Shown here: positions 432 through 24,904 of the stretch, one piece after another
Numbering within the stretch: the first letter of the stretch is position 1
Layout of the letters: each line of letters starts with the position of its first letter
IMG/VR virus record: IMGVR_UViG_3300008450_000306
Span: 1-29,718 of that record
Length of the DNA stretch: 29,718 nucleotides
Source: a virus
Lineage: Duplodnaviria > Caudoviricetes
Reading direction: 5' to 3' (one strand)
Notes under the pieces: generated by a model
What the model saw: only the letters and a program-made list of their open reading frames with translations
What the model was told of the DNA's origin: nothing
The model's database searches: none
Program-made: the position numbers and the translations under genes

Positions 432-3400
432 CTAGAGCGCGTTGAGTTCGCCGTGTTCGCTGCCGTATTTGGCTGCCAACCATGCCATGAAGCTACGCCC
501 TTCCGGCGTGAGTTGCTTCTCTACCTCGTCAATCCATGCCTGATCGTAGGACCAGCCAGAAGTGCGTTGCCCGTTCTCGTCAAACGTGCCTTCCATGTGC
601 CTGCGACCATCCTCTTGCCGCCACATTAGAAGTGCTGTGATGGCCTCAAATTGCGAAAGCTCTACGTCTCCAGCCTTGATGGTCCGTTGCGCCATGTCAA
701 AGCGCAGCCGTTCGCCGTCGAGCACTTTACCGCCAGCCATCGAGGTAAAAAGGGTTTCGAGTTCGTCAGCAATGGCCTGCTGCTCGTCCTCGTAATCATT
801 CGAGGCTTCGCGCTCGCCGTCGATCAATTCCGTAGCCTGCTGCGACTTGGAGCCGAAAGCGTAGCGCAACACCTCGGAGAACGACGACACCGACAGCCAG
901 GCGGACTTGGCTTTGCCGAAAAGCGTCGTCATGGCTTTTTCCATGGCCTGCCGCTCTTTGAGCACGCCGGATTTGCCCGCGTCCGCCTTGAGGGCATCAC
1001 GCACAGCCTGCCGCGCCTCGCGTCGTGCCGTCTGCTTGGCCTTCCATGCGACCACGCCTTGAGAGTAGAGCCGCGTCAGTTCATCAAAAGCCGTAAAGAG
1101 CCGCCCGGAATCCGCGTTCTTCATGTCGCCCACAAGCTCGACAATGCCGCGTTCCAGCACCGCAAGAACGCGTTGATCGTCGGAAAGCGAGTCGTCAACC
1201 GACAAGGCATCAAGCTTTGCCAGTTCACCACGCAGCGCCGCCGCATCCATCGTGGTTGCCGCTTCCGCACGCTGGAAGAGGTAATGCTCATCCGGGCCGA
1301 GCTTGCCTTTGGCCTTCTTGCCCGCCGTGTAGTCGGCAGCGGCTTTCTTGAACAGCCGGTTGATGCTACCCGCGGCGTCCTTCTTGAGCCACTTTTCAAG
1401 CTCCTTGTCGAGCTTGGCAACGCGATCTTCGAGATACCGCAGCGCTGCCTCATCGGTGGCGATGCCGGCCATTTTGACGAAACCGCCCACGCGGGCGCGG
1501 ACCTCGGGAGGTGAGGCTGCAAGAATGCCATCTAGCACGCGCAGCAGTTGGCGAGTTTTTTCGCGTTGAGCCGAAGTGTCTTTGCGTGACAGTTTAGCCG
1601 TTTCAGATTCTTTGCGTTTTTCCAGTTCTCTAATGTTGCGCTCATATTCCAACCGCAAGCTGGCGAGTTTGTTATCGGCATCACGTCGAATGCGTTCTCG
1701 ATCCAATTCGCTGCCTTTGTCTTGTGCAACGCCTTTTATTTCAAAATCGCGGTCCTGACGAATTTGTTTTTCATTTGCTTCTAAATCGGCTCGAAGCTGT
1801 GCAGATTCTTCTGCAAACTTAGTTTCCAAATCTTGCCGCTGTTTTTCGTTGTTATCAAACTGCGCTTGAAGCTCAAGCAGTTGCGGCATGACTCGCAACG
1901 CGCGATCCTTCGCGACGCGAGCCATGACTAAGCGAGCTTCCGGCGAACGCTGAAAGGGCGAGAACATCGCTTCCACGCGTGAGGCGAAGTCGCCGGGGCG
2001 AAGGCTGTATGTAATGCGATCATCCGCAGGGTTGAACCGCTTAGAAAGCGGGATCACGTTGCCCGCGTCGTCGTAGGTTACGGGGTCGGCGGATTTGATT
2101 TGGCTTGGATTCGCTACCGCAACATCCCCCGAAGGCATCTGAATAGATGTTATCCCCTTATTCTCCAAGGAAGCTAACTCAGCATTTCTTTGATAGGCAC
2201 TTTCCCAAGGTTGGAAGTCTTCATCAAAAGTATATTTTCTGGATAAATCAAGATATGCGTCTATTCTTCTATCACCGTAAGTGAATTGGAAATCTTCATC
2301 CAATGACTCATCGGTATTAAACCATGTCCATCCCTTGCTTTTCAGGAATGAATTAAAATCCGAATCTGTTCTGTGGATAAAAGTTCCCACACTATACCCC
2401 GCCTTCTTCGCCGCATCATTTACCATCCGCTGCATCCTAGCAGCCGCCTTTGGATTGCGCTTGATCCACGAATCGACCACCGCTTGACGCTCATCTGGCG
2501 AAGCATCACGCAGTAGTTGATTGAGGTTGTCGCTGCCGCTGTCGCCAGCCTCAACCGCTGCGAGGTATTCGGCGTCTTGCGCCGGAGTCACGCGCAGGCT
2601 GAAAGTTGTATCCGTATTAAATGCCGAACGCGGGCGCAATTCCGTGTCTGTCGCAACAATAACATGCGCCGTGTTGTCATCCATTCCGGCCATTGCCTTG
2701 CCTCTGCTGCGTGAACCAAACTTAGTGTTCACGTTTTTATCAATGATGCCATCAAATCCCAAAGCGTCCATGAAGACACGACGGATAAGCTCGCCAACTG
2801 CTAGTTGTCCATTGTCGCCAGAAGTTGCATAAACAGTCCCTTCGTTGTTACGAAGCTCTTGCTCCAAATCGGCTGCATACATGCCATCTTGATCAAGCGA
2901 TGAAACAAAAGCGCCGGAATCGGTGTCATCAAACGAATCGACCACGCGAGCAATCTTTGCCAATACTCCATCAAAGTCTTTTTCAGCTTCGATTTCATAC
3001 ATGGCGTCTTGCACTTGGTCCTGATAGTCCGGCAATTCGTCGCGTGTAATTCCTTCGCGATCCATGACAAGTTCCTCTGCCTCATCGCGATACTGCTCAA
3101 CGTCGCCTCTAAATTCAATGAATGTGCCTCTGTTGGTAGAATCGCCAACGCGCCCTTTCCATAAAACCACCGGATTTCGCATGGGAATCAACAAAGGAAT
3201 TACCGCGCCGCCATGACCTTTCAGCATGCTTCGCGCCTCGCGTTCCGCCTCGTCTTCATCCATGCCGTCGTTCACCAACTGCTCTTTTGTCAGTTCGATG
3301 CGCTGCGTTAGGTCTGGCCCTTCGCCTGCATAGTTGGCATTTACATCTTCAATGGAAGTTGAAGCATACACGCCTGCCCCCATGTCATTTTCAAGGTAGG

Positions 3401-6400
3401 CCCGCTCATCGGTGAATTGCTCGATTGTGTGCGTTGTGCCGTGATAAGCGCCAATGACAACGGGGCCGCGAATTTCAGCGTCCATTAACTCATCTGGCGC
3501 AATGTATTTGGCGTTGGGCAAAATCTTGTCCAACTGCTTTTTGGTAGGCTTGCGAATACTGAAAGTGTCGCCTATCGCCCCAGAAGTTCCTGTTCGGCCT
3601 TCCGCAATTCCTCTTCCCGCTGCTTTAGCGTTTCTTCCGGCTTGTCCTGACTGAAATCCGCCGGCCAAGGTCGTGCGTTCGACTCGGACTTTGCCGCGCT
3701 CAAGAACGAACTTGACGGTGTTTCCTGCGGAAGGGGAGCCTTCTGTGTAGTAAGTGCCATTTGTGACGGTAGTGTGAACCTTTTCAGCGTCGATATCAAG
3801 ACCAAACGTCGCAATCAATTCCTTGGTCAGGTCGAGTGATGAGTGCCCGACAGCCTCATTTTTAATGGCATTCCAACCAAACCAGTGCATGCCGCCCGCG
3901 TTGGCGTGCTCTCCAAGGTGAAACTGTAGTTCCTCAGATTTGGCAATCGACTCCTCAAGCACGACCTCGAAAGCTTCATACATTGCCAAGGAAAGCGCTT
4001 CGTTGTCACTGTCTATGCCGCCATAAACGCCGTAGACGCCAACCGGGTCAGATGGAGTGTTTGCGCTGTAATTAAAATAGCTTGAAGGCTCATTTGCCTG
4101 CATTCCTTCCATTGCCGTTGGCAACCAAAACTCGACAAATTTCCATCGATCCATAATTACGCCTGGAGTCCCAAACGTAAGGCCGATAAACCGCTGAACC
4201 TTGTTTTTGATGCCGAGCTTGCCCGCCCCAATGTTCCAAAAGCGCCTTCCCATTTCACGGCTGTTTGGCGCGGCATACACATCGGCCATGTCATTCCAGC
4301 GGCCATTGAGCCGCGAAAGCATGAGGTAAAAGTCGTTAGCGTTCGACGTCGCCGCGTTGCCAATCGGGCCAGACTCAACTGCGCTGGATGCGCGAGCGTC
4401 CTGCACCACCTGTTTCCATTGATCCACGGTCATGGCAAACGTGCCGTCGATGGATGACTGAATCGCGTCGAGCACGGGACGGTGGGCGATCAGTCGCAAC
4501 CACATGCCCTCTTGATCAATTGGAGAAAGCATGCGGGATAAAATACCCCACATATTGTGCAAAGCGACAACGAACGGCGCCGGAGCCTTGCCATCACCGA
4601 TTAATTTTCGCATTTCCACAGTGCCGTCCATGCCCTGTTTCGCGGAAGTCTGCGTGTCGCTCAATGATGCTGCGCCGTGATATCCACCGTTTAGCTTGGC
4701 GACGTATGCAGCCGGATTGGCAATGATGTCAGCAAGGCCAGATGGAGGCATCGGGATATCTCCCCAAACGCCAGCCTTGCGCATAAACGTCACCCAGCCC
4801 TTTGCAGTCGTAATCTGCAAAGGGTCTGCCCGTAGCCACTCGATAGCCTTGTCGAGTTTGCCATAAAACTCAGCCCGAACCTTTGGAGAATTAAGAACCT
4901 TAGAAACGCTGCCGCTAATTTTTGGCAACGTCCATGATGGCAAAGCATCCGTGGTATTTGCCACCACGCCCCTTGGCGGCTTTACACTTAATAACGACGG
5001 CGCAATCGAGAACGTCTCGCCATTCGGCCCCGGAGTCGCCTCCGAATATCCGGAAGTGTCCACCTGCTGCGCTACCTCGTCGCGCACCTGCTGCACTTCC
5101 TGCATCGCGCCCTGTTCATGCTTCACCTGCGAATCAATGCCAAGCTGCTTTTCGAGTTCGGCAACCACGTCTTCATTCAGCTTGCCCGCCGCCTTGAGTT
5201 CGCCGAGCTTTTGGGCGCGGTTCACGACGGCTTGCCAGAAAGTCGATTCCGAGTTGAGCGCACCGGCCAGACCGGCACGCATGAGCAGACGCGAGAAGCG
5301 CCGCATGTTGTTCTGTTGCAACGGCTCGCCAAACGACGAGCGCCCGACTAGGTAGGACTGCCCCAAGTGCGACCATGCCTCGACAAGATCGTCGTCCGTC
5401 AGTTGATTGTCCGGGACTTCGCGAAAGAGCTTGTCGCCGCTTTCCTGTTCGTAGTTCCGCAACGCCGCCAGCATCCAGCCTCGCCCGCCACGGCTCGACA
5501 CAATCGCCTTGGCATCGCCTTCGAGCTTTTCTTCAACAAGCGTCAGGACGTTGGAGCCTTCCCACAGCTTGATGGTCGTGCGCAAAACGCCGTCTTTGAA
5601 CTCGTTCCTAGACGAACCGAGAATCTGATAACTGGACAAAAAGCCGTCAGCCTCCGCCGTAGCTCGATCCACCATCGAGGCCGTATCAAAGGCCTCGTTC
5701 GGGTCAATGTCGCCAAGCACCTTGCCCTGTTCGACGCGCCGCTGAATGTCCGGCGTCGTTTGCCCGGCTTCCACCATGCGAACATCTGGCTTGAACTCTA
5801 CGCCAAGCTCGCGGTTGGTGCTCATGTTGCGTTCCATCGAGGTCAAAGCCTCGCGGGTCAAAGCATGCACGCGGCCAAGTTGATCTTCTGCCCACGTCCA
5901 GCGGGCCGTGCTGGCTTCGTCATGCGTGGCAAAACGGGCCGTTGAGCCGTCGTTGAAGGTCAGCAGCCAGTCATTTTCAGCCGTGTGCATTACGCGAGGC
6001 AGCACGCCGCGCCGCTCAAGCTCCGCCTGATAGGCCACAGCATCGCTAGAAAGCGCCTTCAAACGCTCCGCCAGTTTGGTCGCGCCTTGTTCCAAGGATG
6101 TCTTGTTGCCCTCGCGGGAACGCCACAGAGAGGCCGCCTTTGCAATGCGGGCCTCGGGCGTTTTTTCTTGGACGATTTCCGTCGCCTGTGCCTGCGAGTA
6201 GTTGAGCGCCGTCAGGGCATCGACATTGGAAGTCATGCGATCCGAAAGCCGCGCATCCGCCGCCGTCATCACACCGCCAAACACCAGCGCCATCGGGAGC
6301 AGCGTCACCGCAAGTTCAGGCGTCGCATTCGCGGCCCGCGTCTTGTAAAAACTCCAATCCACGTCCGGGACGTCCTTTTCAAGAGCGCCTAGAAGCTCCT

Positions 6401-7883
6401 GCATGGCTGGCACCACAACATTGTCCTGCACCTGCTCCTCGGTGAACTCCGTAGCGCCGGAGATAAGCGAGTTCTGGACGTAGCGACCGACCAGCGACGC
6501 GCCGCCGACAGGACGCGTGAAGCGGGATAGCACCGACTGGACAGCCGGGAACTTGCCGAGGCTCACCATGTTCGATAGGCTTTCGACAGCCGCTTGCAGC
6601 GGAGCCGCCATGACGCCGACCTTCCGCGCCTGATCGGCATCAAGGCCGCTTTGCACCAGTTCGCGCCGGGTATTGGAAGCAAAATCCGCAGTAAACAAAA
6701 GGCCAGCGCCGTAAGGTCCAAGCAACGCCGAGGCACCCATTGAAGGCAAAATAGCCCCAGGAGCTTTAATCAAGCCGGTTTCAATCGTCTCGTTCATCCA
6801 GCCCGTTGTTGGCTTTACCGGGTCGAGTTCGCCGGAAACAATCTGTATGATTTCACCCTCCACATCGCCAATGCGTTCACGATAATCACGTTGCCGCATT
6901 AACGCTTGTTGTTGCTCAGGAGACAAAACAGGCGTTGCAATGGGAGTGCCGTCCAGCATATCCACCGAACGGCCCGACGCTTGCGCTAACGCAATAGACG
7001 CATCAACAGCAATGCCGCCCGTTTCTCCCACAGACGATGCTGCCGCATAAAGTTGTTGGTCGAGAAAGCCGAGCATCTGCGACCAGAAGCCTTTCTGATC
7101 GTAGCCAGCGGCCTCGATCCGGGCAGCAATGGAGCGATACACGCTCTTGCGCTGCGCTTTCTTCATGCCCGCAAGCTGTTCGATCATGCCGCCAAGCTCT
7201 TGCGCTTTGGTCTGGTCAAAGGCTTGTCCGTATTTTTTGGTGGATTGCGCTTCGAGCAATGGCAAAAGCCGGTCAGCAATCGGCAGCATTTCGCCGTCCT
7301 GTTCGAGCGCCTGCTGGTATCCACGCATGAAAAGCCCGGCGTCTTCTTTGGCTCGATCCGCGTTCTTGGCCTGCCATGCCGCCAGCGCCTTCACGCCATC
7401 CTCGCCGCGCAGGGCCGCGTTGACGCCCTCGCGTTGCGTGTCCTCGAGCAGTTTGATCCGCTGCATGTCCTTTTGTGCCAGCGCATAGAACTTGGCCGTG
7501 TCCACATCCTCAGACGCGCCGAACTTCTGCCGGGCAAAGTCGTTGATGAGAAAATCATACCGCTCCGCAACTTCCCGTGGTTCTTTCTGGTATCGAGCGG
7601 ACAGCAAAGCCATGTTGGCGTGAAGCATCTTCGCTTCTTGCGGATTCTGTGAAAACGGCCCCGGATCATAGGTGATTTTGTCCGGTGACTCAAACATGCC
7701 GCGCAAATTGGTTTCACGCTCCACGCGAGCACGTTCGACAGAAGGCCAGTCAGGCTCCCCGTCGTCACGCTGCTGCTGCTGATAGCGGTCCAAAAGATCA
7801 AGCATCCACGGGCGATCCGTTTCAGGCGCTTGGTCAATCGAGCGGGCTATTGTGAGGGCTTCACTTTCGAGAATCTTGGGCAT
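432..7883 (-). CDS. Giant polyvalent internal virion/ejection protein with HhH-glycosylase-like and two ADP-ribosyltransferase-like modules
   Basis: 2483 aa; last gene of podoviral internal virion block; modules bounded by TFSI/TFSL/TYSL linkers; ART-like motifs YHGT..GAGVY..GFDGII and QIKSADPVTYDDAGNVIPLSKRFN. Confidence 0.8.
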   Translation of the reverse strand: MPKILESEALTIARSIDQAPETDRPWMLDLLDRYQQQQRDDGEPDWPSVERARVERETNLRGMFESPDKITYDPGPFSQNPQEAKMLHANMALLSARYQKEPREVAERYDFLINDFARQKFGASEDVDTAKFYALAQKDMQRIKLLEDTQREGVNAALRGEDGVKALAAWQAKNADRAKEDAGLFMRGYQQALEQDGEMLPIADRLLPLLEAQSTKKYGQAFDQTKAQELGGMIEQLAGMKKAQRKSVYRSIAARIEAAGYDQKGFWSQMLGFLDQQLYAAASSVGETGGIAVDASIALAQASGRSVDMLDGTPIATPVLSPEQQQALMRQRDYRERIGDVEGEIIQIVSGELDPVKPTTGWMNETIETGLIKAPGAILPSMGASALLGPYGAGLLFTADFASNTRRELVQSGLDADQARKVGVMAAPLQAAVESLSNMVSLGKFPAVQSVLSRFTRPVGGASLVGRYVQNSLISGATEFTEEQVQDNVVVPAMQELLGALEKDVPDVDWSFYKTRAANATPELAVTLLPMALVFGGVMTAADARLSDRMTSNVDALTALNYSQAQATEIVQEKTPEARIAKAASLWRSREGNKTSLEQGATKLAERLKALSSDAVAYQAELERRGVLPRVMHTAENDWLLTFNDGSTARFATHDEASTARWTWAEDQLGRVHALTREALTSMERNMSTNRELGVEFKPDVRMVEAGQTTPDIQRRVEQGKVLGDIDPNEAFDTASMVDRATAEADGFLSSYQILGSSRNEFKDGVLRTTIKLWEGSNVLTLVEEKLEGDAKAIVSSRGGRGWMLAALRNYEQESGDKLFREVPDNQLTDDDLVEAWSHLGQSYLVGRSSFGEPLQQNNMRRFSRLLMRAGLAGALNSESTFWQAVVNRAQKLGELKAAGKLNEDVVAELEKQLGIDSQVKHEQGAMQEVQQVRDEVAQQVDTSGYSEATPGPNGETFSIAPSLLSVKPPRGVVANTTDALPSWTLPKISGSVSKVLNSPKVRAEFYGKLDKAIEWLRADPLQITTAKGWVTFMRKAGVWGDIPMPPSGLADIIANPAAYVAKLNGGYHGAASLSDTQTSAKQGMDGTVEMRKLIGDGKAPAPFVVALHNMWGILSRMLSPIDQEGMWLRLIAHRPVLDAIQSSIDGTFAMTVDQWKQVVQDARASSAVESGPIGNAATSNANDFYLMLSRLNGRWNDMADVYAAPNSREMGRRFWNIGAGKLGIKNKVQRFIGLTFGTPGVIMDRWKFVEFWLPTAMEGMQANEPSSYFNYSANTPSDPVGVYGVYGGIDSDNEALSLAMYEAFEVVLEESIAKSEELQFHLGEHANAGGMHWFGWNAIKNEAVGHSSLDLTKELIATFGLDIDAEKVHTTVTNGTYYTEGSPSAGNTVKFVLERGKVRVERTTLAGGFQSGQAGRNAKAAGRGIAEGRTGTSGAIGDTFSIRKPTKKQLDKILPNAKYIAPDELMDAEIRGPVVIGAYHGTTHTIEQFTDERAYLENDMGAGVYASTSIEDVNANYAGEGPDLTQRIELTKEQLVNDGMDEDEAEREARSMLKGHGGAVIPLLIPMRNPVVLWKGRVGDSTNRGTFIEFRGDVEQYRDEAEELVMDREGITRDELPDYQDQVQDAMYEIEAEKDFDGVLAKIARVVDSFDDTDSGAFVSSLDQDGMYAADLEQELRNNEGTVYATSGDNGQLAVGELIRRVFMDALGFDGIIDKNVNTKFGSRSRGKAMAGMDDNTAHVIVATDTELRPRSAFNTDTTFSLRVTPAQDAEYLAAVEAGDSGSDNLNQLLRDASPDERQAVVDSWIKRNPKAAARMQRMVNDAAKKAGYSVGTFIHRTDSDFNSFLKSKGWTWFNTDESLDEDFQFTYGDRRIDAYLDLSRKYTFDEDFQPWESAYQRNAELASLENKGITSIQMPSGDVAVANPSQIKSADPVTYDDAGNVIPLSKRFNPADDRITYSLRPGDFASRVEAMFSPFQRSPEARLVMARVAKDRALRVMPQLLELQAQFDNNEKQRQDLETKFAEESAQLRADLEANEKQIRQDRDFEIKGVAQDKGSELDRERIRRDADNKLASLRLEYERNIRELEKRKESETAKLSRKDTSAQREKTRQLLRVLDGILAASPPEVRARVGGFVKMAGIATDEAALRYLEDRVAKLDKELEKWLKKDAAGSINRLFKKAAADYTAGKKAKGKLGPDEHYLFQRAEAATTMDAAALRGELAKLDALSVDDSLSDDQRVLAVLERGIVELVGDMKNADSGRLFTAFDELTRLYSQGVVAWKAKQTARREARQAVRDALKADAGKSGVLKERQAMEKAMTTLFGKAKSAWLSVSSFSEVLRYAFGSKSQQATELIDGEREASNDYEDEQQAIADELETLFTSMAGGKVLDGERLRFDMAQRTIKAGDVELSQFEAITALLMWRQEDGRRHMEGTFDENGQRTSGWSYDQAWIDEVEKQLTPEGRSFMAWLAAKYGSEHGELNAL

Positions 7884-9615
7884 GACGTTGGCGGATGGCG
7901 TTCAGGTCTGGAGCTTCGAGAGATGGCAGTAAAACGCCAGCGGGATTCACCCCGCCAGTCGGTGCCACAGGCGGCAGGTTTTTCTGTGACCGCAGCTTGG
8001 CTGTGATGCGATCATATTCCGCTGCCGCATCTGTGCCGGGCTTGTTGGGATTGGCTTTTTGGAAGGCTTCAAGCTCTTGCGTGGCCTGCACACGAAGCGC
8101 ATTAGCCGACCGAATCTTGGCCTCGTCTTCAAAAACGAACTTGTCGATTTTGACGGGATTCGTTTTGCCTTTGTTTTCTTCGGACAGCCACAAGGCGCGT
8201 GCCTCCATTTCGAGTTCGTCGGCAGTCTTGGGGCGACGGCTCCACATCATGCCGGTTTCTTTCGTGAGGTTCTTTTTGAACGCGTCCACTTCCGCCCGCA
8301 TTTTCGGCGGCAGCGTCGCCTTGGGATCGTCCAGCGTGCTCGTCGTTGGACCAAACACGCCGTTCTTCAAATCGTCGTCCGCTTGAGTAAACACCTTGCC
8401 CCAAGAGCGCGAGAATGATCCGCCGTCTTGCTCACCCGCCAGCGCCTTGTCACGCAGCCCGAGAATGTGAGAGCGATGATTGCCCGTCGCCAGCGCATCG
8501 ACGCGCTTGGTGAAGAGGAAATACTCGGGAGAATCCGGCGCGTGCTGGAAGTTTGCGGCTTCTTTCGCCAGCGTCGAAAGCACAAACTCATCATCCATTT
8601 TGTTGTCGATGGCTGTCATAATTTCTGCCTTGTCGCCTGGAGTCAAAAAGTTGCCTTCATCGAGCAACTTCACGATTTCCGCCTTGGATGCCTTGGCCTT
8701 CATGGCGTCGGCAATGCCAGCGTATTGCTTGCCTCGCTCGCGGGTCTGCACGGTTTCACTGCGGCGTTTCAATTCGTCCAGCCGGTTTGCGGTGATGCGC
8801 CCGCGTGAAAAGTCGTTCTGTGCAACTTCGAGACCGTGAACGGGATTGGTGTCGATCAAGTGTTCAAGCTCCGCGTCCTTGAAGCGGTTCTCCACCTGCA
8901 TGAGCAAGCTCGACTTTTCCGAGTCCGTCAGATCCGCATTGCTTTGAATCGACGCCTTCACCTCGTCAGCTTTGGCCGTGGGCGCGTCCAGCATCGTCTT
9001 AAGTTCGAGGTTGAACCGCTCCCGGCGCGTTCCTTTGGCTGCCTTGCTGGCGTCGTATTCAACAAGCGCCCCTTCTTCGGGAGTGAAGACGCCAAGTTTC
9101 ACGCCATGCTCTACGGTGCTGCGAATCATGGAATCATCGCCGAAGTCAATTGCCTGCTTCATGCGGAGGTCGAGCGCGTCTTTTGTGCGTTTCACCCCTT
9201 GCTTGAACACATCGCCCTGCACGCTGATGGTTTGCGCATCGTTCCACCGGCCCCAGGAGCGCGTTGTATTGAGCCGCGCCCCTTCCGTCATCTTGAGGCC
9301 GTCGATTTGCTTCTGTGCTGTGGACTGCATTTCCTGCCACTTAGGCAGCCATGCGGATTCGTCGGCGTTCTGAGGATCAAGCCGCCACGCGTTGAAGTCG
9401 TTCGTGGTCTGCCGCATGACGTTCTCGGCTGCGATCATGCTGCGAGCGTCCACAAGCTCGGCGTATTTGGCCTGCAAATTGACCAGCGTTTCACCCGCTT
9501 GCCCGATCGCCCGCCCGATTTGTGCCGTGCGATTGGCGTTCGAAGTCAGTTGAACCGGTGCGACGTTGCCAAAAGCTGGAGCGCGAGCGATGGGTGCGAG
9601 AGGAACAAGGGGCAT
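7861..9615 (-). CDS. Internal virion (ejection) protein
   Basis: 584 aa helical Ala/Gln/Lys-rich; between small internal protein and giant protein, overlapping the latter's start. Confidence 0.65.
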   Translation of the reverse strand: MPLVPLAPIARAPAFGNVAPVQLTSNANRTAQIGRAIGQAGETLVNLQAKYAELVDARSMIAAENVMRQTTNDFNAWRLDPQNADESAWLPKWQEMQSTAQKQIDGLKMTEGARLNTTRSWGRWNDAQTISVQGDVFKQGVKRTKDALDLRMKQAIDFGDDSMIRSTVEHGVKLGVFTPEEGALVEYDASKAAKGTRRERFNLELKTMLDAPTAKADEVKASIQSNADLTDSEKSSLLMQVENRFKDAELEHLIDTNPVHGLEVAQNDFSRGRITANRLDELKRRSETVQTRERGKQYAGIADAMKAKASKAEIVKLLDEGNFLTPGDKAEIMTAIDNKMDDEFVLSTLAKEAANFQHAPDSPEYFLFTKRVDALATGNHRSHILGLRDKALAGEQDGGSFSRSWGKVFTQADDDLKNGVFGPTTSTLDDPKATLPPKMRAEVDAFKKNLTKETGMMWSRRPKTADELEMEARALWLSEENKGKTNPVKIDKFVFEDEAKIRSANALRVQATQELEAFQKANPNKPGTDAAAEYDRITAKLRSQKNLPPVAPTGGVNPAGVLLPSLEAPDLNAIRQRHAQDSRK

Positions 9616-10166: not shown

Positions 10167-12907
10167 TTGCCTGAGATTTCACATTTGAGAACGTAACCGA
10201 GCATGTTGAAAGGCGTTGGGTCTGCATGCGCAAAAGTCAAGGTCACAGCATCGGTCCAATCCGCTTTAACGTGCTGTTCTTTCCGACCTGAAAACACCGT
10301 AGTTGTTCCTGCTGGGTATTCGATAGCATAAGCCGTTCCGCTCGTCGCGTGTTTGATGGTGCCTCCAAGGCTTTTGTGGAGCAGCAGTTGCGTCCGCTGG
10401 CTGTTAAACTTACGGCCTTGTGCCGTTCCGTCTTGAAGCTGGAACTCCAACGGCATCGGTTGAAGAGTCGAAATATAAGGCAAACCGACAAAAAGAGTCG
10501 TCGCCGCAGCCCCAAGGGTAATCGCCCCGCTCGCAACCGTTTTGCTTTCGCTGGTCGTGCCAGAACGCCACACCTTCACCGTCAGCCCTTCGAGGTGCGA
10601 AAGCCCGGAAACCGCCGTGCTGCTCGCTTGCGTGATTTTTTTCGCGCAGTCGAGGTAACAGAAATCCGTGGCCGTGTCGAAATCGAAAGCCTGCGCAGTA
10701 GGGTAAAACCGCTCGATATACCGCTTTGTTGAACCGTTCACAGTGCGGTTGACAATCATCCAAACGCGATCGGCTTCCGCTGATCCTCGCACAGCTGCGA
10801 TGCTTTCAAACGTGCCTTGCGTGGTGCGCTCGAACCATGCGGTGATTTGGTTGGCTCGATTGTAGGAAAAGCCCAAAAGCCGCCCGTCGCCAGTCACGGC
10901 CCACAAAATAGGGTCCGGTTCACTTTGGTAAGCCAGCGCCACAATGCCGCCGTCTGTTACGTTTTCAGCTCGAAGCGTCATGTCGTTGGCTTCGTAGGCG
11001 TCGGAAGAAAATACATAGGCGAACTCAAAGACCTTGCGCCCGGTAGGTGAAACCCACAAAAGCGCGTCTTTCGTTTGCACGGGCTGCAGCGTGGTCGAGC
11101 CTGCTCGGTTGCGCCGTATGGCTTGCACGTTTGATGGCTTGAGCACTTCGGAGCCGTCGCCACCACCTTGAATGGTCCATTCTTCACCCGTTGTCCCAAC
11201 GACCAGCCCTTGTCGGTAGCTGGCAATCCATCGAACTAGGTTTGATTCGTTTGAGTTCAACACAATGTCGAATCCGTCAGAATCCCCCTCGCCTGTCGAA
11301 AAGTTGAAAAAGTCGTCTACCACGCTGCCACGAACTCGATTTGGCTCTTTGCTGGTGCCACCAAACCACAAGCGCAGATTGTGCAGCCCGACAGCTCCAG
11401 GATAGCCGTTATCCTGCGAAAAGGCATGAACATAAAAGGCCGACGCAGCCACACCAACAGCAGGCTTGGGAGCCAAGCTTTGCCGAGGCAAAGCAGAACG
11501 CACTTGCAGCACCGTCGATGAAGTCAAAGCGCGGATCGTAAACGGCAGCTTTACCTGTGCGTCAGCCGATTCAAGCAACACGCTCGCGGGTGATCCTGAC
11601 AGGGCTTCGCAGTAACCGCCAAGCCGATACCATTCCCCCGCTTTTGCGGCGTCGTCTTCATAAACAAATGTGCCTTGTGAGGTGTCGTTTTGCGTCCATT
11701 CCTTCACTACTTCCCAATTGACGCCATCGAGAGCACGCTCAAGCCGCAGGGTTCCAAGCGGCGATTCGTTGGCTTTCCAGCTTGAGGTTACACTGTAAGA
11801 TCCCTGAATGAAAATAGGCTGTGACGCAGTGTATTCCGATCCCGGCGATCCGCTTGGAGACGTGCCGCCCAATTTGAGCGATGCTCCACGCGGAGAGCTT
11901 GCGCTTGTCGTGCGATACAGCGACGGCTCAATGATAAATTGGTCGCTAACGTCGAGGCCGCTAAACACTGAAGAATTGCTTGCTGTGAGCTTGTAATCAA
12001 CTTCTGCCCCTGTAGCCAGCCGCCAGCGATTGGCCGCAAGATCCGTGGCAAACGTGCCGCTGGTGTGCGCCGTCGTGCAGTAGTAAGCCACGCTCGAAAC
12101 CGTGCGGATGTCGCCCACAACGTAAGCCGTCGAAGTCAACCATGCTGCATGGTCGAAATTGAGTGTTACCGTGTAGCCAGAACGACTCAGTTCGTGTTCT
12201 TTGAGAGGCGGAAAAACGTAACTAATCGGCTGGACGAGGAACGAGTGCGTTACGTTCGTTGTGTTGGCGTCACTCCATGCGGCGTTGCGGATAAAATTCG
12301 AAGTTAGGCTGTCCACCGGAATTGACTCGATCAACTGCGGCGGATGATTTGGATGAACAAGCACAAGCAGCCGGTTGATTTGCTGGATCTGGATGACCGC
12401 CAGTTCGCTCTCGGTGTATTCGTTCGGCCATTCGTAGATGCTGCCAGTCAAAGCGTGCCAATAGCCAGCCGAAAGAGCCGCCGCAAAACTCGAATCTTTT
12501 GCCTCATCATTGTCAACGCGCAGGTAATTTGTGCCGCCACTTGATGCCACATCGCCAAGGTAATACGTCGTTGCCGTCGAATGCGCCGTGACGGAATATC
12601 CGCTTTTGATTTGTAGGTAACCACCCGGATCACTGTCGCGCCAAAATCGAAAATAGCCTTCGCCTACTTCAATAAAGTAGTTTTCTGCAGTCGAAACACG
12701 CAACGGGATGAGCCGTGTTTTTTTTGAAGACGTTTTGACCTCGCCAATGTATTGTGTGCCTGGAGCCTTAAACGCGCCGCCGTAGGGACGCACAATGAAG
12801 TTTTTCATTTGGAGGCAGCCGGTGCGATATTGCTCAAAATCAACTCGGCCTTCCATAAGCGGCGAATAGATGCCGCCGTTGAAATTGACGTGAAGTGAAT
12901 GAGGCAT
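10163..12907 (-). CDS. Tail tubular protein B / nozzle (T7 gp12-like)
   Basis: NFNGGIYSP..GRVD, NFIVRPYGGAFKAPGT, GYPGAV..HNLRLWFGG, YLDC, GLSHLEG, VGLPY motifs; 914 aa. Confidence 0.9.
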   Translation of the reverse strand: MPHSLHVNFNGGIYSPLMEGRVDFEQYRTGCLQMKNFIVRPYGGAFKAPGTQYIGEVKTSSKKTRLIPLRVSTAENYFIEVGEGYFRFWRDSDPGGYLQIKSGYSVTAHSTATTYYLGDVASSGGTNYLRVDNDEAKDSSFAAALSAGYWHALTGSIYEWPNEYTESELAVIQIQQINRLLVLVHPNHPPQLIESIPVDSLTSNFIRNAAWSDANTTNVTHSFLVQPISYVFPPLKEHELSRSGYTVTLNFDHAAWLTSTAYVVGDIRTVSSVAYYCTTAHTSGTFATDLAANRWRLATGAEVDYKLTASNSSVFSGLDVSDQFIIEPSLYRTTSASSPRGASLKLGGTSPSGSPGSEYTASQPIFIQGSYSVTSSWKANESPLGTLRLERALDGVNWEVVKEWTQNDTSQGTFVYEDDAAKAGEWYRLGGYCEALSGSPASVLLESADAQVKLPFTIRALTSSTVLQVRSALPRQSLAPKPAVGVAASAFYVHAFSQDNGYPGAVGLHNLRLWFGGTSKEPNRVRGSVVDDFFNFSTGEGDSDGFDIVLNSNESNLVRWIASYRQGLVVGTTGEEWTIQGGGDGSEVLKPSNVQAIRRNRAGSTTLQPVQTKDALLWVSPTGRKVFEFAYVFSSDAYEANDMTLRAENVTDGGIVALAYQSEPDPILWAVTGDGRLLGFSYNRANQITAWFERTTQGTFESIAAVRGSAEADRVWMIVNRTVNGSTKRYIERFYPTAQAFDFDTATDFCYLDCAKKITQASSTAVSGLSHLEGLTVKVWRSGTTSESKTVASGAITLGAAATTLFVGLPYISTLQPMPLEFQLQDGTAQGRKFNSQRTQLLLHKSLGGTIKHATSGTAYAIEYPAGTTTVFSGRKEQHVKADWTDAVTLTFAHADPTPFNMLGYVLKCEISGK

Positions 12908-21217: not shown

Positions 21218-21273
21218 GCAACTGGATAGCGGGAATCATTTGGCGTTTGTCAAACCAGAAATTACCACGGACT

Positions 21274-21333
21274 GCCGAACGCCTGCTGCATCAAGCCTCG
21301 CTTCGGCTCGGTTGATGAGCGTCCTTGTTCTGC
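21274..21333 (+). mobile_element. attC-like recombination site 1 (60 bp)
   Basis: GCCGAAC..GCT[G]CATCAA..TTGATGAGC..GTTCTGC; extrahelical base in left arm. Confidence 0.7.
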
Positions 21334-21464
21334 TCCTTGCGGAGTCTTGCGGCCTTTCGAGCTTCCTGCATCGCCGCCTGCTGTGCTGGTGTGATCTTGC
21401 GGCGGCTGGCCTTGCCACCTTTGCTGCCGATCTCCGCGAGGTATTTCTTGAGTTCCTTTTTCAT
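21291..21464 (-). CDS. KGG-motif small basic protein (57 aa), moron 2 gene 3
   Basis: Hand-translated MKKELKKYLAEIGSKGGKASRRKITPAQQAAMQEARKAAR...; ATGA overlap with upstream gene. Confidence 0.8.
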   Translation of the reverse strand: MKKELKKYLAEIGSKGGKASRRKITPAQQAAMQEARKAARLRKEQNKDAHQPSRSEA

Positions 21465-21652
21465 GCCTTCGAGAGATCGACGCCAGTTTTCCAGTTCGCC
21501 ACGAAGATGCGTAGCAAGATCGCCATCGGGAATGATGCCCCTCGCTTTTCGAGGTAGGCCATGAGAGACGGAACGCAGTCAGACGGCACGCGGACCACTG
21601 ATTCGAGCACTCCATTGACGGAGATTTCCGCCACCGATTCAGAGGCTTGCAT
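21461..21652 (-). CDS. Hypothetical protein, moron 2 gene 2 (63 aa)
   Basis: Overlaps both neighbours. Confidence 0.6.
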   Translation of the reverse strand: MQASESVAEISVNGVLESVVRVPSDCVPSLMAYLEKRGASFPMAILLRIFVANWKTGVDLSKA

Positions 21653-21836
21653 TGTAGTCGGCCTCCTGGATGAGATTGTTGATGCGTGATGCCTCCGACC
21701 AGTCAGTTGACCGAGGGCAGGCGCGAAGGATGCGGGCGGCCTGAGTGTAGAGGCGGCGGGCCTGCTCAGGGGTTGAGTCGCACCGGTCAGCGGTGGACAT
21801 AAGGGCTTTGGCGTCGGCGATGTATTCAGCGTTCAT
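21639..21836 (-). CDS. Hypothetical protein, moron 2 gene 1 (65 aa)
   Basis: ATG immediately downstream of promoter (near-leaderless). Confidence 0.65.
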   Translation of the reverse strand: MNAEYIADAKALMSTADRCDSTPEQARRLYTQAARILRACPRSTDWSEASRINNLIQEADYNASL

Positions 21837-21844
21837 GTGTGTGA

Positions 21845-21871
21845 CTTTATCATAAGCGGCTTATGACGCAA
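21845..21871 (-). promoter_or_regulatory. Promoter of moron 2 with perfect palindromic operator
   Basis: TTGCGT-N16-TAAAGT on minus strand; TCATAAGC-G-GCTTATGA at 21850-21866 fills the spacer. Confidence 0.7.
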
Positions 21872-21900
21872 GCGGCATTTTGCATATTCTCACCAACGGA

Positions 21901-21996
21901 GCAGAACAAGCAGGATGCAGCCAATTCGGCGGGGCGGAGTCGTCGTGTCAGCGGGTATCTATCGCCCGCCTTCATGGCTGATCTTGGTCGTTCGGG
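21901..21996 (+). mobile_element. attC-like recombination site 2 (96 bp)
   Basis: GCAGAAC-AAGC-AGGAT[G]CAGCCA...TGGCTGATCTT-GGTC-GTTCGGG. Confidence 0.75.
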
Positions 21997-21999
21997 CAA

Positions 22000-22039
22000 T
22001 ACAAAGCCCCGCTCTCTGCACTCACAGAGACACGGGGCT
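22000..22039 (-). terminator. Putative intrinsic terminator
   Basis: AGCCCCG..TCTCTG/CAGAGA..CGGGGCT followed by TTGTATT on minus strand. Confidence 0.6.
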
Positions 22040-22162
22040 GATACCTTGAGCCTACTTCCTCCCATCGGCGACTCGGTAATGATGGGCAGTCGGTGTTGGT
22101 TATTTCATGGGGATACCTCCGTAGATTCGGAGTGATTGTAGAGGCCAGTAGTGTGACCGAAA

Positions 22163-22555
22163 TCAGGAGACGCGCAAGCCCGAACCATAGCGTTCAACCT
22201 TACCACTAACCGCAAGCCTTTTCAACCGCTCCCATACCACAAAACGCGCCGGGCTACCACGTTGAGCCAAGCCGATGAGCGGCAATTCCGCCGGCAGCCA
22301 GCGCACCGCAACGGACAGTTTGCCAGCCAGCAGCCAGATATACCACGCGTCTGCCGTCTCCAACGGCTCGACCTCGGCAATGTCCGCAATCCTCGACGGC
22401 TCCCAAGTGGACAGCACCGGCCTTGCCATCGCAAACGCGTCAGGAGTCGCCACGACGTAGCCGAACAGAAAATGCTGCTCTAACTCATCCGTGAAGCGCC
22501 GCGTGTCGCCTTGGTAAAGCGCGAGGGCTTGAGCGTAGGGCGTCATCGTCTCCAC
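22163..22555 (-). CDS. Hypothetical protein, possibly GNAT-like fold
   Basis: Overlaps terminase stop; GYVVATPDAFAMARPV, DAWYIWLLAG motifs. Confidence 0.6.
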   Translation of the reverse strand: METMTPYAQALALYQGDTRRFTDELEQHFLFGYVVATPDAFAMARPVLSTWEPSRIADIAEVEPLETADAWYIWLLAGKLSVAVRWLPAELPLIGLAQRGSPARFVVWERLKRLAVSGKVERYGSGLRVS

Positions 22556-23874
22556 CCTCCAAAGCTGAATTTTGCTTGCCTGCGGTTGCGCGGCTTGTCG
22601 TCGTCGTCCTCAAAGGCCCGCGTCACCGTTTGAGTGTTGAACTTCACCAGCCCACACCCGAGAGCTTCCGCGATGTATCGCGCCGCGTCTGCCGTGTGAC
22701 TCGACCAGTCATGCACCGGCTCGCTGGAAATGAGCTTGCCAAGCTCGACCTCTTTCGTGTGGTAGGCTTCAAGGGCTTCGATGCCTTTCTCACATTTGCG
22801 AGCGTGAAACACCATCGACGGGAACAAGCCTTTGAGGCCATTAATGCCGTTCCAGATGTCAGCTGTTCGAGGAAGAACAACGGCGTTTTGAAACCCGGCA
22901 TCGCGCAAGTCTTGCACGAACGTCCTGCCGCTGCGCTCGGTCTGCTCGGCATCGTGCGGAAGAATGTGCTTCCCGTAGGCGTAGCCTTTTGCCAGCATCC
23001 AGGCGACTCGTTGCGTCACAGTCTCGACGCCCTCGATGTAACCCACATCGCAGTCAATGACGCGGATTTCCCGGCCTGCAATTTGCCAATACCAAACGGT
23101 TGTGTTTGACGGGCTGCCCAAATCCCAAGTGGTGTGAACGAGCGTGTCAACAACCGGAAACTCGACAATGCGCTTTTCCCGATAGGCGGCCTCGATGAGC
23201 CGGGCATAGATCGCCCCCGGCCTGCCGACGTTGAAGTCGCATTCCATTTCCTGCGCGTAGGCTTCTGCCGTGAGCTGCGAGCGTAAAGCCCCAAGAGCGG
23301 ATTCCGACAGAATGCCCGACTCGCTGGCCTTGAGCATGAGAGCAAAGCTATCAGGTGCGCTTTGTGCCTTCACAAACGCCTTATAGAACGCGTTTTTGCC
23401 CTTCGGCGTGCCGATCCGGGTATGCCAGCCGTCGTAATCGAGCAAACACGGAAGAATGACGTAATCGAAAGCCTGCGGAGGAATGTCGGCGTCCTCGTCA
23501 GAAACTACGCCGTCGAAATAGAGGCCGCGCATGCGCTCATAGTTCTCGCCCGAGTAAAGACGGACCACCGCCTTGTTGACGAACGTGATCTTGAGTTCCG
23601 ACTCGTTAATGATCGTGCCGGGAATCTTGCCCGCGTAGTCCTTGAGATAAGCCCAAGCGATGTCTTTGGCTTGGTCACGCGTCGGCGCAATGTAGGCATA
23701 CCGGAGCGGCGGCCCTTTGCGCTTGTGCGTCAGGGCGCACTTGATGAGCTTTTGCACCACGCCCACCGTTTTTCCTGCCCGTCGATGCGCTACCAGCACA
23801 GACCAGCGTGCAGACGATTCAAGGTAAGGCCGAAACTGTTGCCTCGGGTTGATCGTCAAGTTAACAGTCTGCAT
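22543..23874 (-). CDS. Terminase large subunit
   Basis: Walker A HRRAGKT, YIAPT, RGLYFDGVVSDE, GTPKG, WDLG, LPHD, HDWSSHTADAARY. Confidence 0.96.
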   Translation of the reverse strand: MQTVNLTINPRQQFRPYLESSARWSVLVAHRRAGKTVGVVQKLIKCALTHKRKGPPLRYAYIAPTRDQAKDIAWAYLKDYAGKIPGTIINESELKITFVNKAVVRLYSGENYERMRGLYFDGVVSDEDADIPPQAFDYVILPCLLDYDGWHTRIGTPKGKNAFYKAFVKAQSAPDSFALMLKASESGILSESALGALRSQLTAEAYAQEMECDFNVGRPGAIYARLIEAAYREKRIVEFPVVDTLVHTTWDLGSPSNTTVWYWQIAGREIRVIDCDVGYIEGVETVTQRVAWMLAKGYAYGKHILPHDAEQTERSGRTFVQDLRDAGFQNAVVLPRTADIWNGINGLKGLFPSMVFHARKCEKGIEALEAYHTKEVELGKLISSEPVHDWSSHTADAARYIAEALGCGLVKFNTQTVTRAFEDDDDKPRNRRQAKFSFGGWRR

Positions 23875-23876
23875 GG

Positions 23877-24281
23877 CTATTCCTCCGCCGTGTTGCCGCC
23901 GATTGTGACGTTAATCGTGAGTTCGTGTTTCTCCGGTTCATACCAGCCCGACGCTTTGCCTACCTCCGTAAGAGCTTTAGTTGACGCACTAAAATCCTCC
24001 GCTGCCTCTGCTTTTGTAGCCAGCCCTTCAAGCCGTTCAAGCCACGTTTCCCGATTCAGTTGCCATTTCTTGTCAGCCATATCACCAGCGGCTTTTTTTA
24101 ATTTTGAAATTCTCAGACTAACCTCAGAAATGTTTTGCAACTTTGAGCCAGTGACCTCCGCTGTTCGGTTTGAACAATTTCCAGCTCGAGAGACGTGCTT
24201 GATGTAGGCTTGGCTTGCTGGCATTCCAGCAGCCACCGATTGCGCAAAGGCTTCGTGCTTTGGGTTTTTGAGTGCTGGCAT
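23877..24281 (-). CDS. Terminase small subunit
   Basis: LKNPKHEAFAQ..AAG...SQAY N-terminus; directly upstream of large subunit. Confidence 0.88.
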   Translation of the reverse strand: MPALKNPKHEAFAQSVAAGMPASQAYIKHVSRAGNCSNRTAEVTGSKLQNISEVSLRISKLKKAAGDMADKKWQLNRETWLERLEGLATKAEAAEDFSASTKALTEVGKASGWYEPEKHELTINVTIGGNTAEE

Positions 24282-24316
24282 TGTGTTAATGCGTGGTTTG
24301 TAATGGTAATTTGCAA

Positions 24317-24381
24317 GGCGAACTTGCGCTGGATCCGACAGACTCGCCTCGGCTCGCTTGCGGCTCAGCTATTTGTTCAGC
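24317..24381 (+). mobile_element. attC-like recombination site 3 (65 bp)
   Basis: GGCGAAC-TTGC-GCTG[G]ATCCG...CGGCTCAGC-TATTT-GTTCAGC (one stem mismatch). Confidence 0.7.
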
Positions 24382-24692
24382 TTTTCCTTGGCAGCGTTGG
24401 CGGCATCGTAGAGTTGCGACATGACCAGTTTTTCAAGTCCGCTGCTGCCGTGGTTTGCTAGGCGATTCGCTTCGTCGTAGCATGTCCGCATTAGCGCGGT
24501 GGCGAGCGCTTCCATTTCGCGGGCGCGGTTGGCGAGATTGTGAATGAGTGAACTGTCGCCAGTGTCGGCGGCCAATATCGCGGCAACCGAAGCTGAACCA
24601 GCCGCTGGAACTGACGGCCTTTCGCACGCCATTCCGTTTGTAGCGCACTTCCCGTAGTTCGGGCACGTTTGGCATGGGTGAAAGTCTTTCAT
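24369..24692 (-). CDS. Hypothetical cassette protein (107 aa) with Cys-rich N-terminus
   Basis: Starts inside attC site 4, ends inside attC site 3; ATGA overlap with upstream gene. Confidence 0.7.
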   Translation of the reverse strand: MKDFHPCQTCPNYGKCATNGMACERPSVPAAGSASVAAILAADTGDSSLIHNLANRAREMEALATALMRTCYDEANRLANHGSSGLEKLVMSQLYDAANAAKEKLNK

Positions 24693-24719
24693 GGCCGCAG
24701 TTCAGCTTTATCGTTCGTG
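24592..24719 (+). mobile_element. attC-like recombination site 4 (128 bp)
   Basis: GCTGAAC-CAGCC-GCTG[G]AACTG[A]CGGCC...GGCCGCAGTTCAGC-TTTATC-GTTCGTG; two extrahelical bases. Confidence 0.8.
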
Positions 24720-24904
24720 TTCATGGTTTGAGCCAAAGGCATGGAGCCTTCCAAAAACTTGCCAGCCTCCTCCCAAGCAAGGCGCAATTCCAAGCGCTGA
24801 TCATCGCTTGGATTTTCTTCGGACATCCTCGCCGTGATGGCAAGATGCAGCCTGCGCATAAGTTTCAGCATGTCGCCGTTGTTGGTTTTATGTGGTGTGC
24901 TCAT
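24689..24904 (-). CDS. Hypothetical protein (71 aa)
   Basis: ATGA overlaps at both ends. Confidence 0.65.
   Translation of the reverse strand: MSTPHKTNNGDMLKLMRRLHLAITARMSEENPSDDQRLELRLAWEEAGKFLEGSMPLAQTMNTNDKAELRP

Follow-up and report, generated by a model that had tools for sequence, protein, structure and literature searches.

A tailed phage (Duplodnaviria; Caudoviricetes), represented by the IMG/VR record IMGVR_UViG_3300008450_000306, carries two short arrays of integron-type gene cassettes within the 29,718-nucleotide stretch that we analysed (positions 1 to 29,718 of the record, hereafter the window), one on either side of its terminase genes. The cassettes are real, mobile and of the integron type; the phage that carries them lacks an integrase and is part of a larger cassette network among phages. 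Our reading, to which we assign a probability of roughly 60%, is that these are two integrase-less arrays of inverted cassettes, bounded at the crossover G|TT in other phages, on which an integron integrase (IntI) would act in trans, most likely provided by other phages of this host group, either co-infecting or resident. As the phage has no integron integrase gene of its own, it likely borrows the enzyme from IntI-encoding phages or from its host. Labels such as L122 or G419 are our own designations for contigs, loci and records.

Results

The first-pass annotation of the window, made from the letters alone, had proposed four hairpins of attC architecture in one orientation with no integrase in view, and their coordinates were confirmed, all on the plus strand. 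Site 1 (21274..21333, 60 bp, crossover 21327|21328, 4-nt spacer between R'' and L'') and site 3 (24317..24381, 65 bp, crossover 24375|24376, just upstream of the terminase small subunit gene terS) are short, attC-like sites at the array heads, while site 2 (21901..21996, crossover 21990|21991) and site 4 (24592..24719, crossover 24713|24714) are host-type attC sites belonging to cassettes 1 and 2, respectively. Each of them reads as AAC, spacer, three pairs, an extra base, six pairs, a second extra base, loop, right arm, spacer and GTT, with one deviation in site 3, where five of the six pairs between the extra bases form. The conserved AAC (R'') and GTT (R') around an imperfect hairpin and the two extrahelical bases of the L'' arm, six pairs apart, are present in 4/4 sites, and this spacing equals that of the extra bases G16 and T23 of attC aadA7 (PMC5027507). 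The first extra base is C instead of G on the bottom strand, as it is in 19 of 25 bacterial sites of the same type. A scan for this geometry over both strands of the whole window, designed after the sites had been seen, returned exactly these four sites at a score of at least 11, and 200 block-wise dinucleotide shuffles gave a mean of 0.055 sites and a maximum of 2.

The consensus RYYYAAC/GTTRRRY is absent from the window sites, all four of which have GAAC/GTTC cores. The first-pass annotation had singled this out as a departure from the canonical core; the departure is present in all four sites but is not unusual, since 13 of 17 chromosomal sites of the likely host group (Planctomycetota/Verrucomicrobiota), found independently of our own search pattern, share it, and the consensus therefore does not define the local site type. 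It was also right that the R'' of each downstream site fits the upstream site better than its own (ten contiguous pairs versus four for site 2, nine versus four for site 4). The accompanying argument that removal of a cassette restores a better-paired site is weak: contiguous pairs rise from 4 to 6 at site 1 and from 4 to 5 at site 3, while the 7-base R box stays as it was (6 to 6 and 5 to 5).

To score the sites we trained a covariance model on 17 chromosomal attC sites of Planctomycetota/Verrucomicrobiota, which had been found by our own geometry scanner and none of which contains the stem pattern of site 2, six of the initial 23 rows having been left out. The pairs of the model covary, with changes on both sides in 18 of 22. 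Site 2 scored 31.7 bits (E 4e-6) and site 4 25.1 bits (E 2e-4); Rfam gave no match in the window. The CALIN rule (for clusters of attC sites lacking an integron integrase) requires at least two same-strand attC sites within 4 kb and no integrase nearby (PMC4889954), and the window holds four same-strand sites with a largest gap of 2.3 kb, two of them firm model matches. The arrays are CALINs by this definition and would work like an integron array.

Two other readings of the repeats were rejected. If minus were the top strand, the gene layout would be canonical; this was rejected because the extra bases identify plus as the top strand and because the homology of cassette and attC copies breaks at the plus-strand G|TT. 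Site 1 scores 16 bits on the minus versus 13.6 bits on the plus strand in the covariance model, a difference too weak to count. A 13-bp inverted repeat was considered as the ends of an insertion sequence or invertible segment and set aside because there is no transposase and the boundary lies at G|TT.

The mobility of the cassettes is seen in their copies elsewhere. Cassette 1 (21328..21990, plus strand, 663 bp) consists of three inverted small open reading frames (ORFs) together with a palindrome and an attC of its own (site 2), and cassette 2 (24376..24713, plus strand, 338 bp) of one inverted ORF and its own attC, site 4. We found cassette 1 in four other viral contigs (L122, L123, L125, L126) at 93-96% identity and in two distinct contexts, and the body of cassette 2 in 12 others at 80-88%, with two more contigs matching site 4 alone. 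Homology begins at G|TT in all four copies of cassette 1 and in 10 of the 12 copies of cassette 2 (eight distinct left contexts); the exceptions are L110 and L111, where it begins four bases later. In 14 cassette copies, 33-40 of the 40 bases to the right of G|TT are identical, versus 8-18 of the 40 to its left. For sites 2 and 4 the picture is reversed at the six places where copies occur, with 35-40 identical bases out of 40 on the left and 9-17 out of 40 on the right: the copies of site 2 in L003, L049 and L052 share 38-39 of 40 bases on the left side of the G and 9-12 of 40 on its right, and those of site 4 in L052, L119 and L120 have other neighbours, with homology stopping at G|TTC. The unit moving between replicons is thus the cassette, beginning at G|TT and ending with the G of the attC that belongs to it. 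Cargo and hairpins also reassort, the body of cassette 2 occurring elsewhere with a different attC and site 4 with other bodies, for which top-strand recombination at R'' (PMC5027507) could be the cause.

An allele series is found at the site-3 position. Upstream of terS, contig L190, which is 88% identical to the window, has a homologue of site 3, and so do sister phages (L067-L070, L078, L079), whose terS is 55-62% identical (the capsid of G421, 57%) and where the homologue sits about 40 bp upstream of the gene. It is empty in L069 and L070, holds one cassette in L079 (381 bp) and L078 (~280 bp), is followed by ~1.1 kb in L194 and by three cassettes in L075; all of these alleles return at G|TT to one and the same backbone. 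In L190 site 3 is followed by a different start, of which only six bases are visible. From this we infer that site 3 is a standing landing site of the lineage. Empty-site alleles, which the first-pass annotation had proposed to look for, thus exist at the G|TT of the site-3 homologue in sister phages and not in the phage's own population, and its expectation of boundaries at G|TT holds for cassette copies across phages while alternative alleles of the own population break elsewhere.

It is very improbable that the hairpins are terminators or chance inverted repeats without a role in recombination. One terminator-like match does lie over site 1, which is no more than chance would give (1 match in the scan, 1.1 expected), and the minimum-energy folds of site 3 lack the attC shape; the shuffle control, with 0.055 sites against four, the covariance model matches, the exact G|TT boundaries in 14 cassette and 6 attC copies and the allele series all argue against it, and the boundaries already contradict it.

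Further loci in these contigs show other arrangements. In L123, L125 and L126 (3864-4740 in window orientation) cassette 1 interrupts a methyltransferase-like ORF, its insertion point being at G|TT, and directly after its attC (G417, ~5310-5414) follows a C-terminal relic of an integron integrase; the locus looks like an off-site insertion with aberrant excision. About 40 bp upstream of terS in L075 and L195 the head site lacks its hairpin (R'', 5 bases and GTT remain) and is followed by three cassettes, two of which encode DNA methyltransferase-like proteins, as identified by eye. L049 (930-5050) is a viral array of at least 10 attC sites with inverted genes, in a 14-kb record that has no PF00589 match, and L119 has two attC arrays of opposite polarity on one viral contig. 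In the lambda-like phage L052 (~1750-1970 and 766-952), two near-copies of a helix-turn-helix-like cassette start follow the right half of site 4, truncated against the phage backbone.

The cassette genes are inverted and locked to the reading frame of the sites, a layout that the first-pass annotation had missed. All four cassette ORFs lie on the bottom strand, none being the top-strand gene of a classical cassette, and two of them cross G|TT. The basic 57-aa ORF of cassette 1 (21291..21464, minus strand), which has a weak KGG-like motif, reads across G|TT with AAC in frame and stops inside site 1, and the 107-aa ORF of cassette 2 (24369..24692, minus strand; no family) starts in site 4, crosses G|TT in the same frame and takes its stop codon from site 3. 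A 71-aa ORF to the right of the array (24689..24904, minus strand) likewise crosses G|TT with AAC in frame, ends in site 4 and overlaps the start of the 107-aa ORF, so that in all three the stop falls inside the next site. Among 55 distinct viral junctions, 48 have an antisense opening of at least 50 codons in the AAC frame, and the other two frames have 10 and 6; at 23 bacterial junctions the same frame counts are 6, 4 and 6, without bias. The longest neighbouring ORF is antisense at 44/55 viral versus 3/23 bacterial junctions. Sites 1 and 3 are members of a class of short sites that have a 4-nt spacer and head arrays: an upstream cognate start was found for 0/11 viral sites with a 4-nt spacer versus 35/41 with a 5-nt spacer. 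As a general mark of head sites the 4-nt spacer was rejected, since it holds in the viral set and fails in KX853513.

Because they lie on the bottom strand, the cassette genes would join the leftward transcription of the phage. An attC folds and is excised more readily if its bottom strand serves as template for lagging-strand synthesis (PMC8946536), and inverted genes would place it there if replication runs with transcription.

The phage itself has no integron integrase. The 38-kb record G001, which is the same phage at 97% completeness, has no match to PF00589 (tyrosine recombinase) and none among its 13 ORFs outside the window; the phage attI motif has no exact counterpart anywhere in the window, nor any match with one mismatch in the vicinity of the arrays. 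An adjacent intI and an attI, as in a complete integron, are thus missing from this phage. The first-pass annotation had placed the enzyme in the host or outside the window: the rest of the 97% record has none, a host IntI still being a candidate, and the search of phage and host group that it suggested gave none for the phage and IntI-like genes in 86/301 Verrucomicrobiota genomes.

The nearest candidate genes for the enzyme were found in other phages. Five of 20 related or cassette-bearing viral records match PF00589, and two of these, G419 (354 bits) and G423 (347 bits), pass the integron-integrase cut-off (TIGR02249, 265); the matches in G417, G420 and G421 were rejected as not IntI or a relic. 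Both G419, a complete phage with capsid and tape-measure matches, and G423 carry cassette 2, which lies inside the intI-linked array of G423 and behind a second attI-like site in G419. A search with the IntI of G419 yielded 16 viral loci; in 14 of them the 5' end is visible, and each of these 14 is preceded by an attI-like site at a distance of 35-70 bp. Near-identical IntI-bearing phages differ in their first cassette exactly at G|TT, and similar attI-like sites are found ahead of cassette 1 (L122) and of cassette 2 (L107, L108 and L113). The closest Verrucomicrobiota match to the phage IntI is ~50% identical among the 301 genomes, the best match among 50,697 GenBank phage records is below 46%, and the best 120 homologues (at least 63% among the matches listed) are all on contigs of at most 44 kb. 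In a midpoint-rooted tree of 50 proteins, chosen by their similarity to one phage IntI and including no other phyla, 11 viral and 15 metagenome IntIs, the latter taken from the 120 homologues, are split from 24 chromosomal ones by a long branch (100/100). G421 and G423 (also L078 and L184) share an assembly prefix, so that sister phages and IntI phages can occur together.

Two observations concern the integrase loci. In L144 (G419, ~11200-11420) the second attI-like site lies far from intI and heads the array begun by cassette 2. L235 (KX853513, Virus Rctr41k, 3815-8570) has an integrase-like gene, 44% identical to the phage IntI and annotated only as xerD, followed by five attC-like sites with sense genes.

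It is also conceivable, though we consider it unlikely, that the same cassettes and crossover are served here by a chromosomal IntI of the host, with IntI-bearing phages as one reservoir only. Sites 2 and 4 are host-type by the covariance model, IntI-like genes are frequent in the Verrucomicrobiota genomes as given above, and 3/5 genomes with site-2-like sequences encode an integron integrase (TIGR02249 above cut-off). Moreover, 5/6 attC sites of CALINs and integrons in phage genomes recombine with IntI1 (PMC9892861), and infection by dsDNA phages can induce the SOS response (PMC8946536). Against a host enzyme, the inverted, frame-locked design is viral and unseen in the sampled bacterial junctions, a search for cassette 1 DNA in 401 Verrucomicrobiota genomes gave only short weak matches in 5, and the other known homes of the cassettes include phages with their own IntI. 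The two sources of enzyme are compatible and not exclusive.

The left pair of sites arrived differently. A 970-bp island (21256..22225) contains sites 1 and 2 together with cassette 1 and the remnant of another cassette. It is missing as a block in close relatives, and its ends lie away from G|TT, so that a simple insertion by attC x attC recombination does not account for the left pair here. The island is recent in the lineage and was probably acquired whole through recombination that is not site-specific; the RecT/Bet and YqaJ proteins encoded by the phage, presumably analogous to lambda Red, are plausible candidates for this. The earlier claim that the phage gains accessory genes by attC x attC recombination thus fits the mobility of the cassettes and the site-3 alleles at G|TT but not the left pair.

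Several findings weigh against the reading of active, trans-mobilised arrays. In a co-occurring strain in 5/8 sequencing runs, and also in L190, 21255 is joined to 22226 with seven other letters between, and 0/24 relatives with both genes visible have an attC in the gap between the terminase large subunit (terL) and portal genes. On the right, an allele in 5/8 runs departs after 24330, inside site 3, and the region of the 71-aa ORF is variable in the population, with alternative alleles joining at 24717, three bases off G|TT, and at 24892 and 24895. Neither a precise excision joint nor a circle junction, the latter proposed as a check in the first-pass annotation, occurs in the contigs of the 8 runs, which make up our population data and drop rare variants. 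In the host-trained model site 1 is weak (13.6-16 bits, E 0.05-0.2) and site 3 goes undetected, which makes the activity of these two sites less certain; the proposed covariance-model comparison, made here with our own bacterial model, gave firm matches to sites 2 and 4 alone. About 6 of the 11 head sites are homologues of site 3, and in KX853513, of another lineage, 4-nt spacers occur on ordinary cassette sites. The selection of proteins in the IntI tree and the IntI-like genes of the host group, which are alternative candidates for the acting enzyme, belong on the same side.

A further explanation is that the cassettes were made by IntI elsewhere and are here passive cargo swapped by Red-like annealing, their sites being relics. 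The ends of the left island off G|TT and its truncated last attC would fit, as would the allele that has only the first 14 bases of site 3 in common, the presence of RecT/Bet and YqaJ in the same phage and the lack of excision in the contigs. We nevertheless rate it as quite improbable: the position of site 3 is kept with different followers in L190 and the sister phages (among which G421 is also below the TIGR02249 cut-off), the geometry is intact in 4/4 sites, and alleles of sister phages differ exactly at G|TT without flanking homology, a pattern whose repeated origin by annealing is not expected.

Cassette 1 may have expression signals of its own. Upstream of its genes, a palindrome (21850-21866) lies between possible -35 and -10 boxes (21844..21871, minus strand), a putative promoter and operator of its own; palindrome and boxes were read by eye, a promoter scan made no call there, and related cassettes in L003, L049 and L052 are preceded by similar palindromes. 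Toxin-antitoxin cassettes are often inverted and have their own promoter. The 57-aa ORF matches PF10685 of Pfam at E 0.0035, below the curated cut-off; the 63-aa ORF (21461..21652, minus strand) has no family and is 100% identical in 4 other contigs, and the 65-aa ORF (21639..21836, minus strand) has no family and a weak PHROG match (E 0.007). No cargo protein of the cassettes reached a family above the cut-off in Pfam, PHROGs or NCBIfam, and the 107-aa and 65-aa proteins, the two that were compared, gave Atlas scores below 0.9. In run X9 cassette 1 is present at ~4x the depth of its flanks, joined to other DNA at ~21325.

The remnant, a probable third cassette (21991..22213, plus strand), has an R''-like motif at 22178-22185, then only the left arm of an attC, and no clear gene. 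It is the pairing of this motif with the sequence after site 2, over 8 contiguous pairs, that points to a third cassette, one not noticed in the first-pass annotation. A 26-base stretch of it was found only in 2 copies of the same phage. Within it, 22005-22115 is a GC-rich inverted repeat with a ribosome-binding-site-like motif on the minus strand before a two-codon minigene; this element could be a non-coding or regulatory cassette. The island replaced the last codons of a conserved 130-aa gene downstream of terL (22163-22225), whose C-terminus is longer than in L190.

The window contains most of a tailed-phage genome, with portal, capsid, tail, terminase and replication genes all on the minus strand by PHROG and Pfam matches. 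The terminase large subunit (22543..23874, minus strand; phrog_2, PF17289) and small subunit (23877..24281, minus strand; phrog_51) lie between the two arrays. The runs containing window sequence are labelled as freshwater or fungus metagenomes. In a comparison by capsid protein that covered two phyla, 32/401 Verrucomicrobiota genomes matched (best 61%) versus 4/401 Planctomycetota genomes (best 35%); as the matches are more numerous and closer in the former, the host probably belongs to the Verrucomicrobiota. The terL protein, matched in 7/401 genomes at 34-51%, is not decisive for the host. A 2483-aa ORF (432-7883 of the window) has no Pfam or PHROG match, and over its first 960 residues it shares 57% identity with a protein of a sister phage.

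Discussion

The nearest described systems resemble the window arrays in part. In a canonical integron (class 1, Vibrio) intI, attI and the promoter Pc precede promoterless genes, each followed by its attC; the unit bounded by G|TT, the complementarity of core and inverse core and the extra bases six apart are shared with the window (PMC5027507). Unlike it, the phage of the window has neither intI nor attI, its sites have C in place of G as the first bottom-strand extra base, and coding frames enter the sites; Pc could not drive the cassette genes here, because they lie on the bottom strand. Chromosomal arrays of Planctomycetota and Verrucomicrobiota (L053-L062, L097-L102, L152-L171) have the same attC geometry, with top-strand extra bases G and A and mostly GAAC/GTTC cores (13/17), and one of them has an attI-like site similar in form to those of the phages. 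They differ in that their genes are mostly sense (20/23 junctions), their IntIs are at most ~50% identical to the phage IntI and short head sites with a 4-nt spacer are rare (1/20).

Closest in kind are the phage CALINs of Qi, Rajabal, Ghaly, Tetu and Gillings (2023; PMC9892861), which like the window are attC clusters without an integrase in phages. There, in contrast, the integrases are of the host type, captured by temperate phages, and typical arrays follow the bacterial layout; the parts of that article consulted report no inverted, frame-locked genes, phage IntI lineage, natural allele series or cassettes common to unrelated phages. Insertion outside integrons, at attG sites of consensus GWT (bioRxiv 10.1101/2022.09.11.507474), is matched by plain sites such as that of cassette 1 in the methyltransferase-like ORF (L123) and the junction of site 2 with G|AT (L003), which fits GWT. 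Unlike attG insertions, most insertions here are at attI-like or head-attC platforms, and one copy, at G|GT, falls outside the consensus. What sets the window apart from described arrays is the orientation of the genes, the frame lock, the head sites and, likely, the source of the enzyme. A literature search, with subscription journals largely outside it, found no paper on inverted, frame-locked phage cassettes or on a phage IntI lineage.

For the preferred reading, with IntI acting in trans, we propose the following mechanism. The bottom strand of attC would fold when single-stranded during phage replication, and IntI would excise the cassette as a circle by attC x attC recombination. The circle would then be inserted at the G|TT of an attI in IntI-bearing phages, of a short head attC such as site 3, or occasionally of a plain genomic site. 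Cassette genes would start in the hairpin loop of their own site or from their own promoter and take the stop codon from whichever site adjoins. In a wider picture, which we offer tentatively and hold at somewhat less than even odds, freshwater phages of Verrucomicrobiota would run an integron economy of their own, in which helper phages provide IntI and attI, integrase-less hitchhikers keep a head-attC landing pad by the terminase promoter, and cassettes are built backwards and frame-locked to match phage transcription, with the recombinogenic strand single-stranded in replication.

Integrons are known as gene-capture devices of bacteria, and attC clusters in phages have so far been read as captured host fragments. 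The natural alleles described here show cassettes crossing between phages that are not related, precisely at the crossover base and in a design suited to phage expression, and a candidate enzyme is encoded by phages. Together these findings offer an exact mechanism, open to testing, for some of the mosaicism of phage genomes and for the spread of accessory genes such as DNA methyltransferases (L003, L075, G419). The natural attC variants, with their short head sites and coding hairpins, provide material on what IntI needs. If the enzyme is borrowed from other phages or from the host, these phages would make up a shared gene-swapping network.

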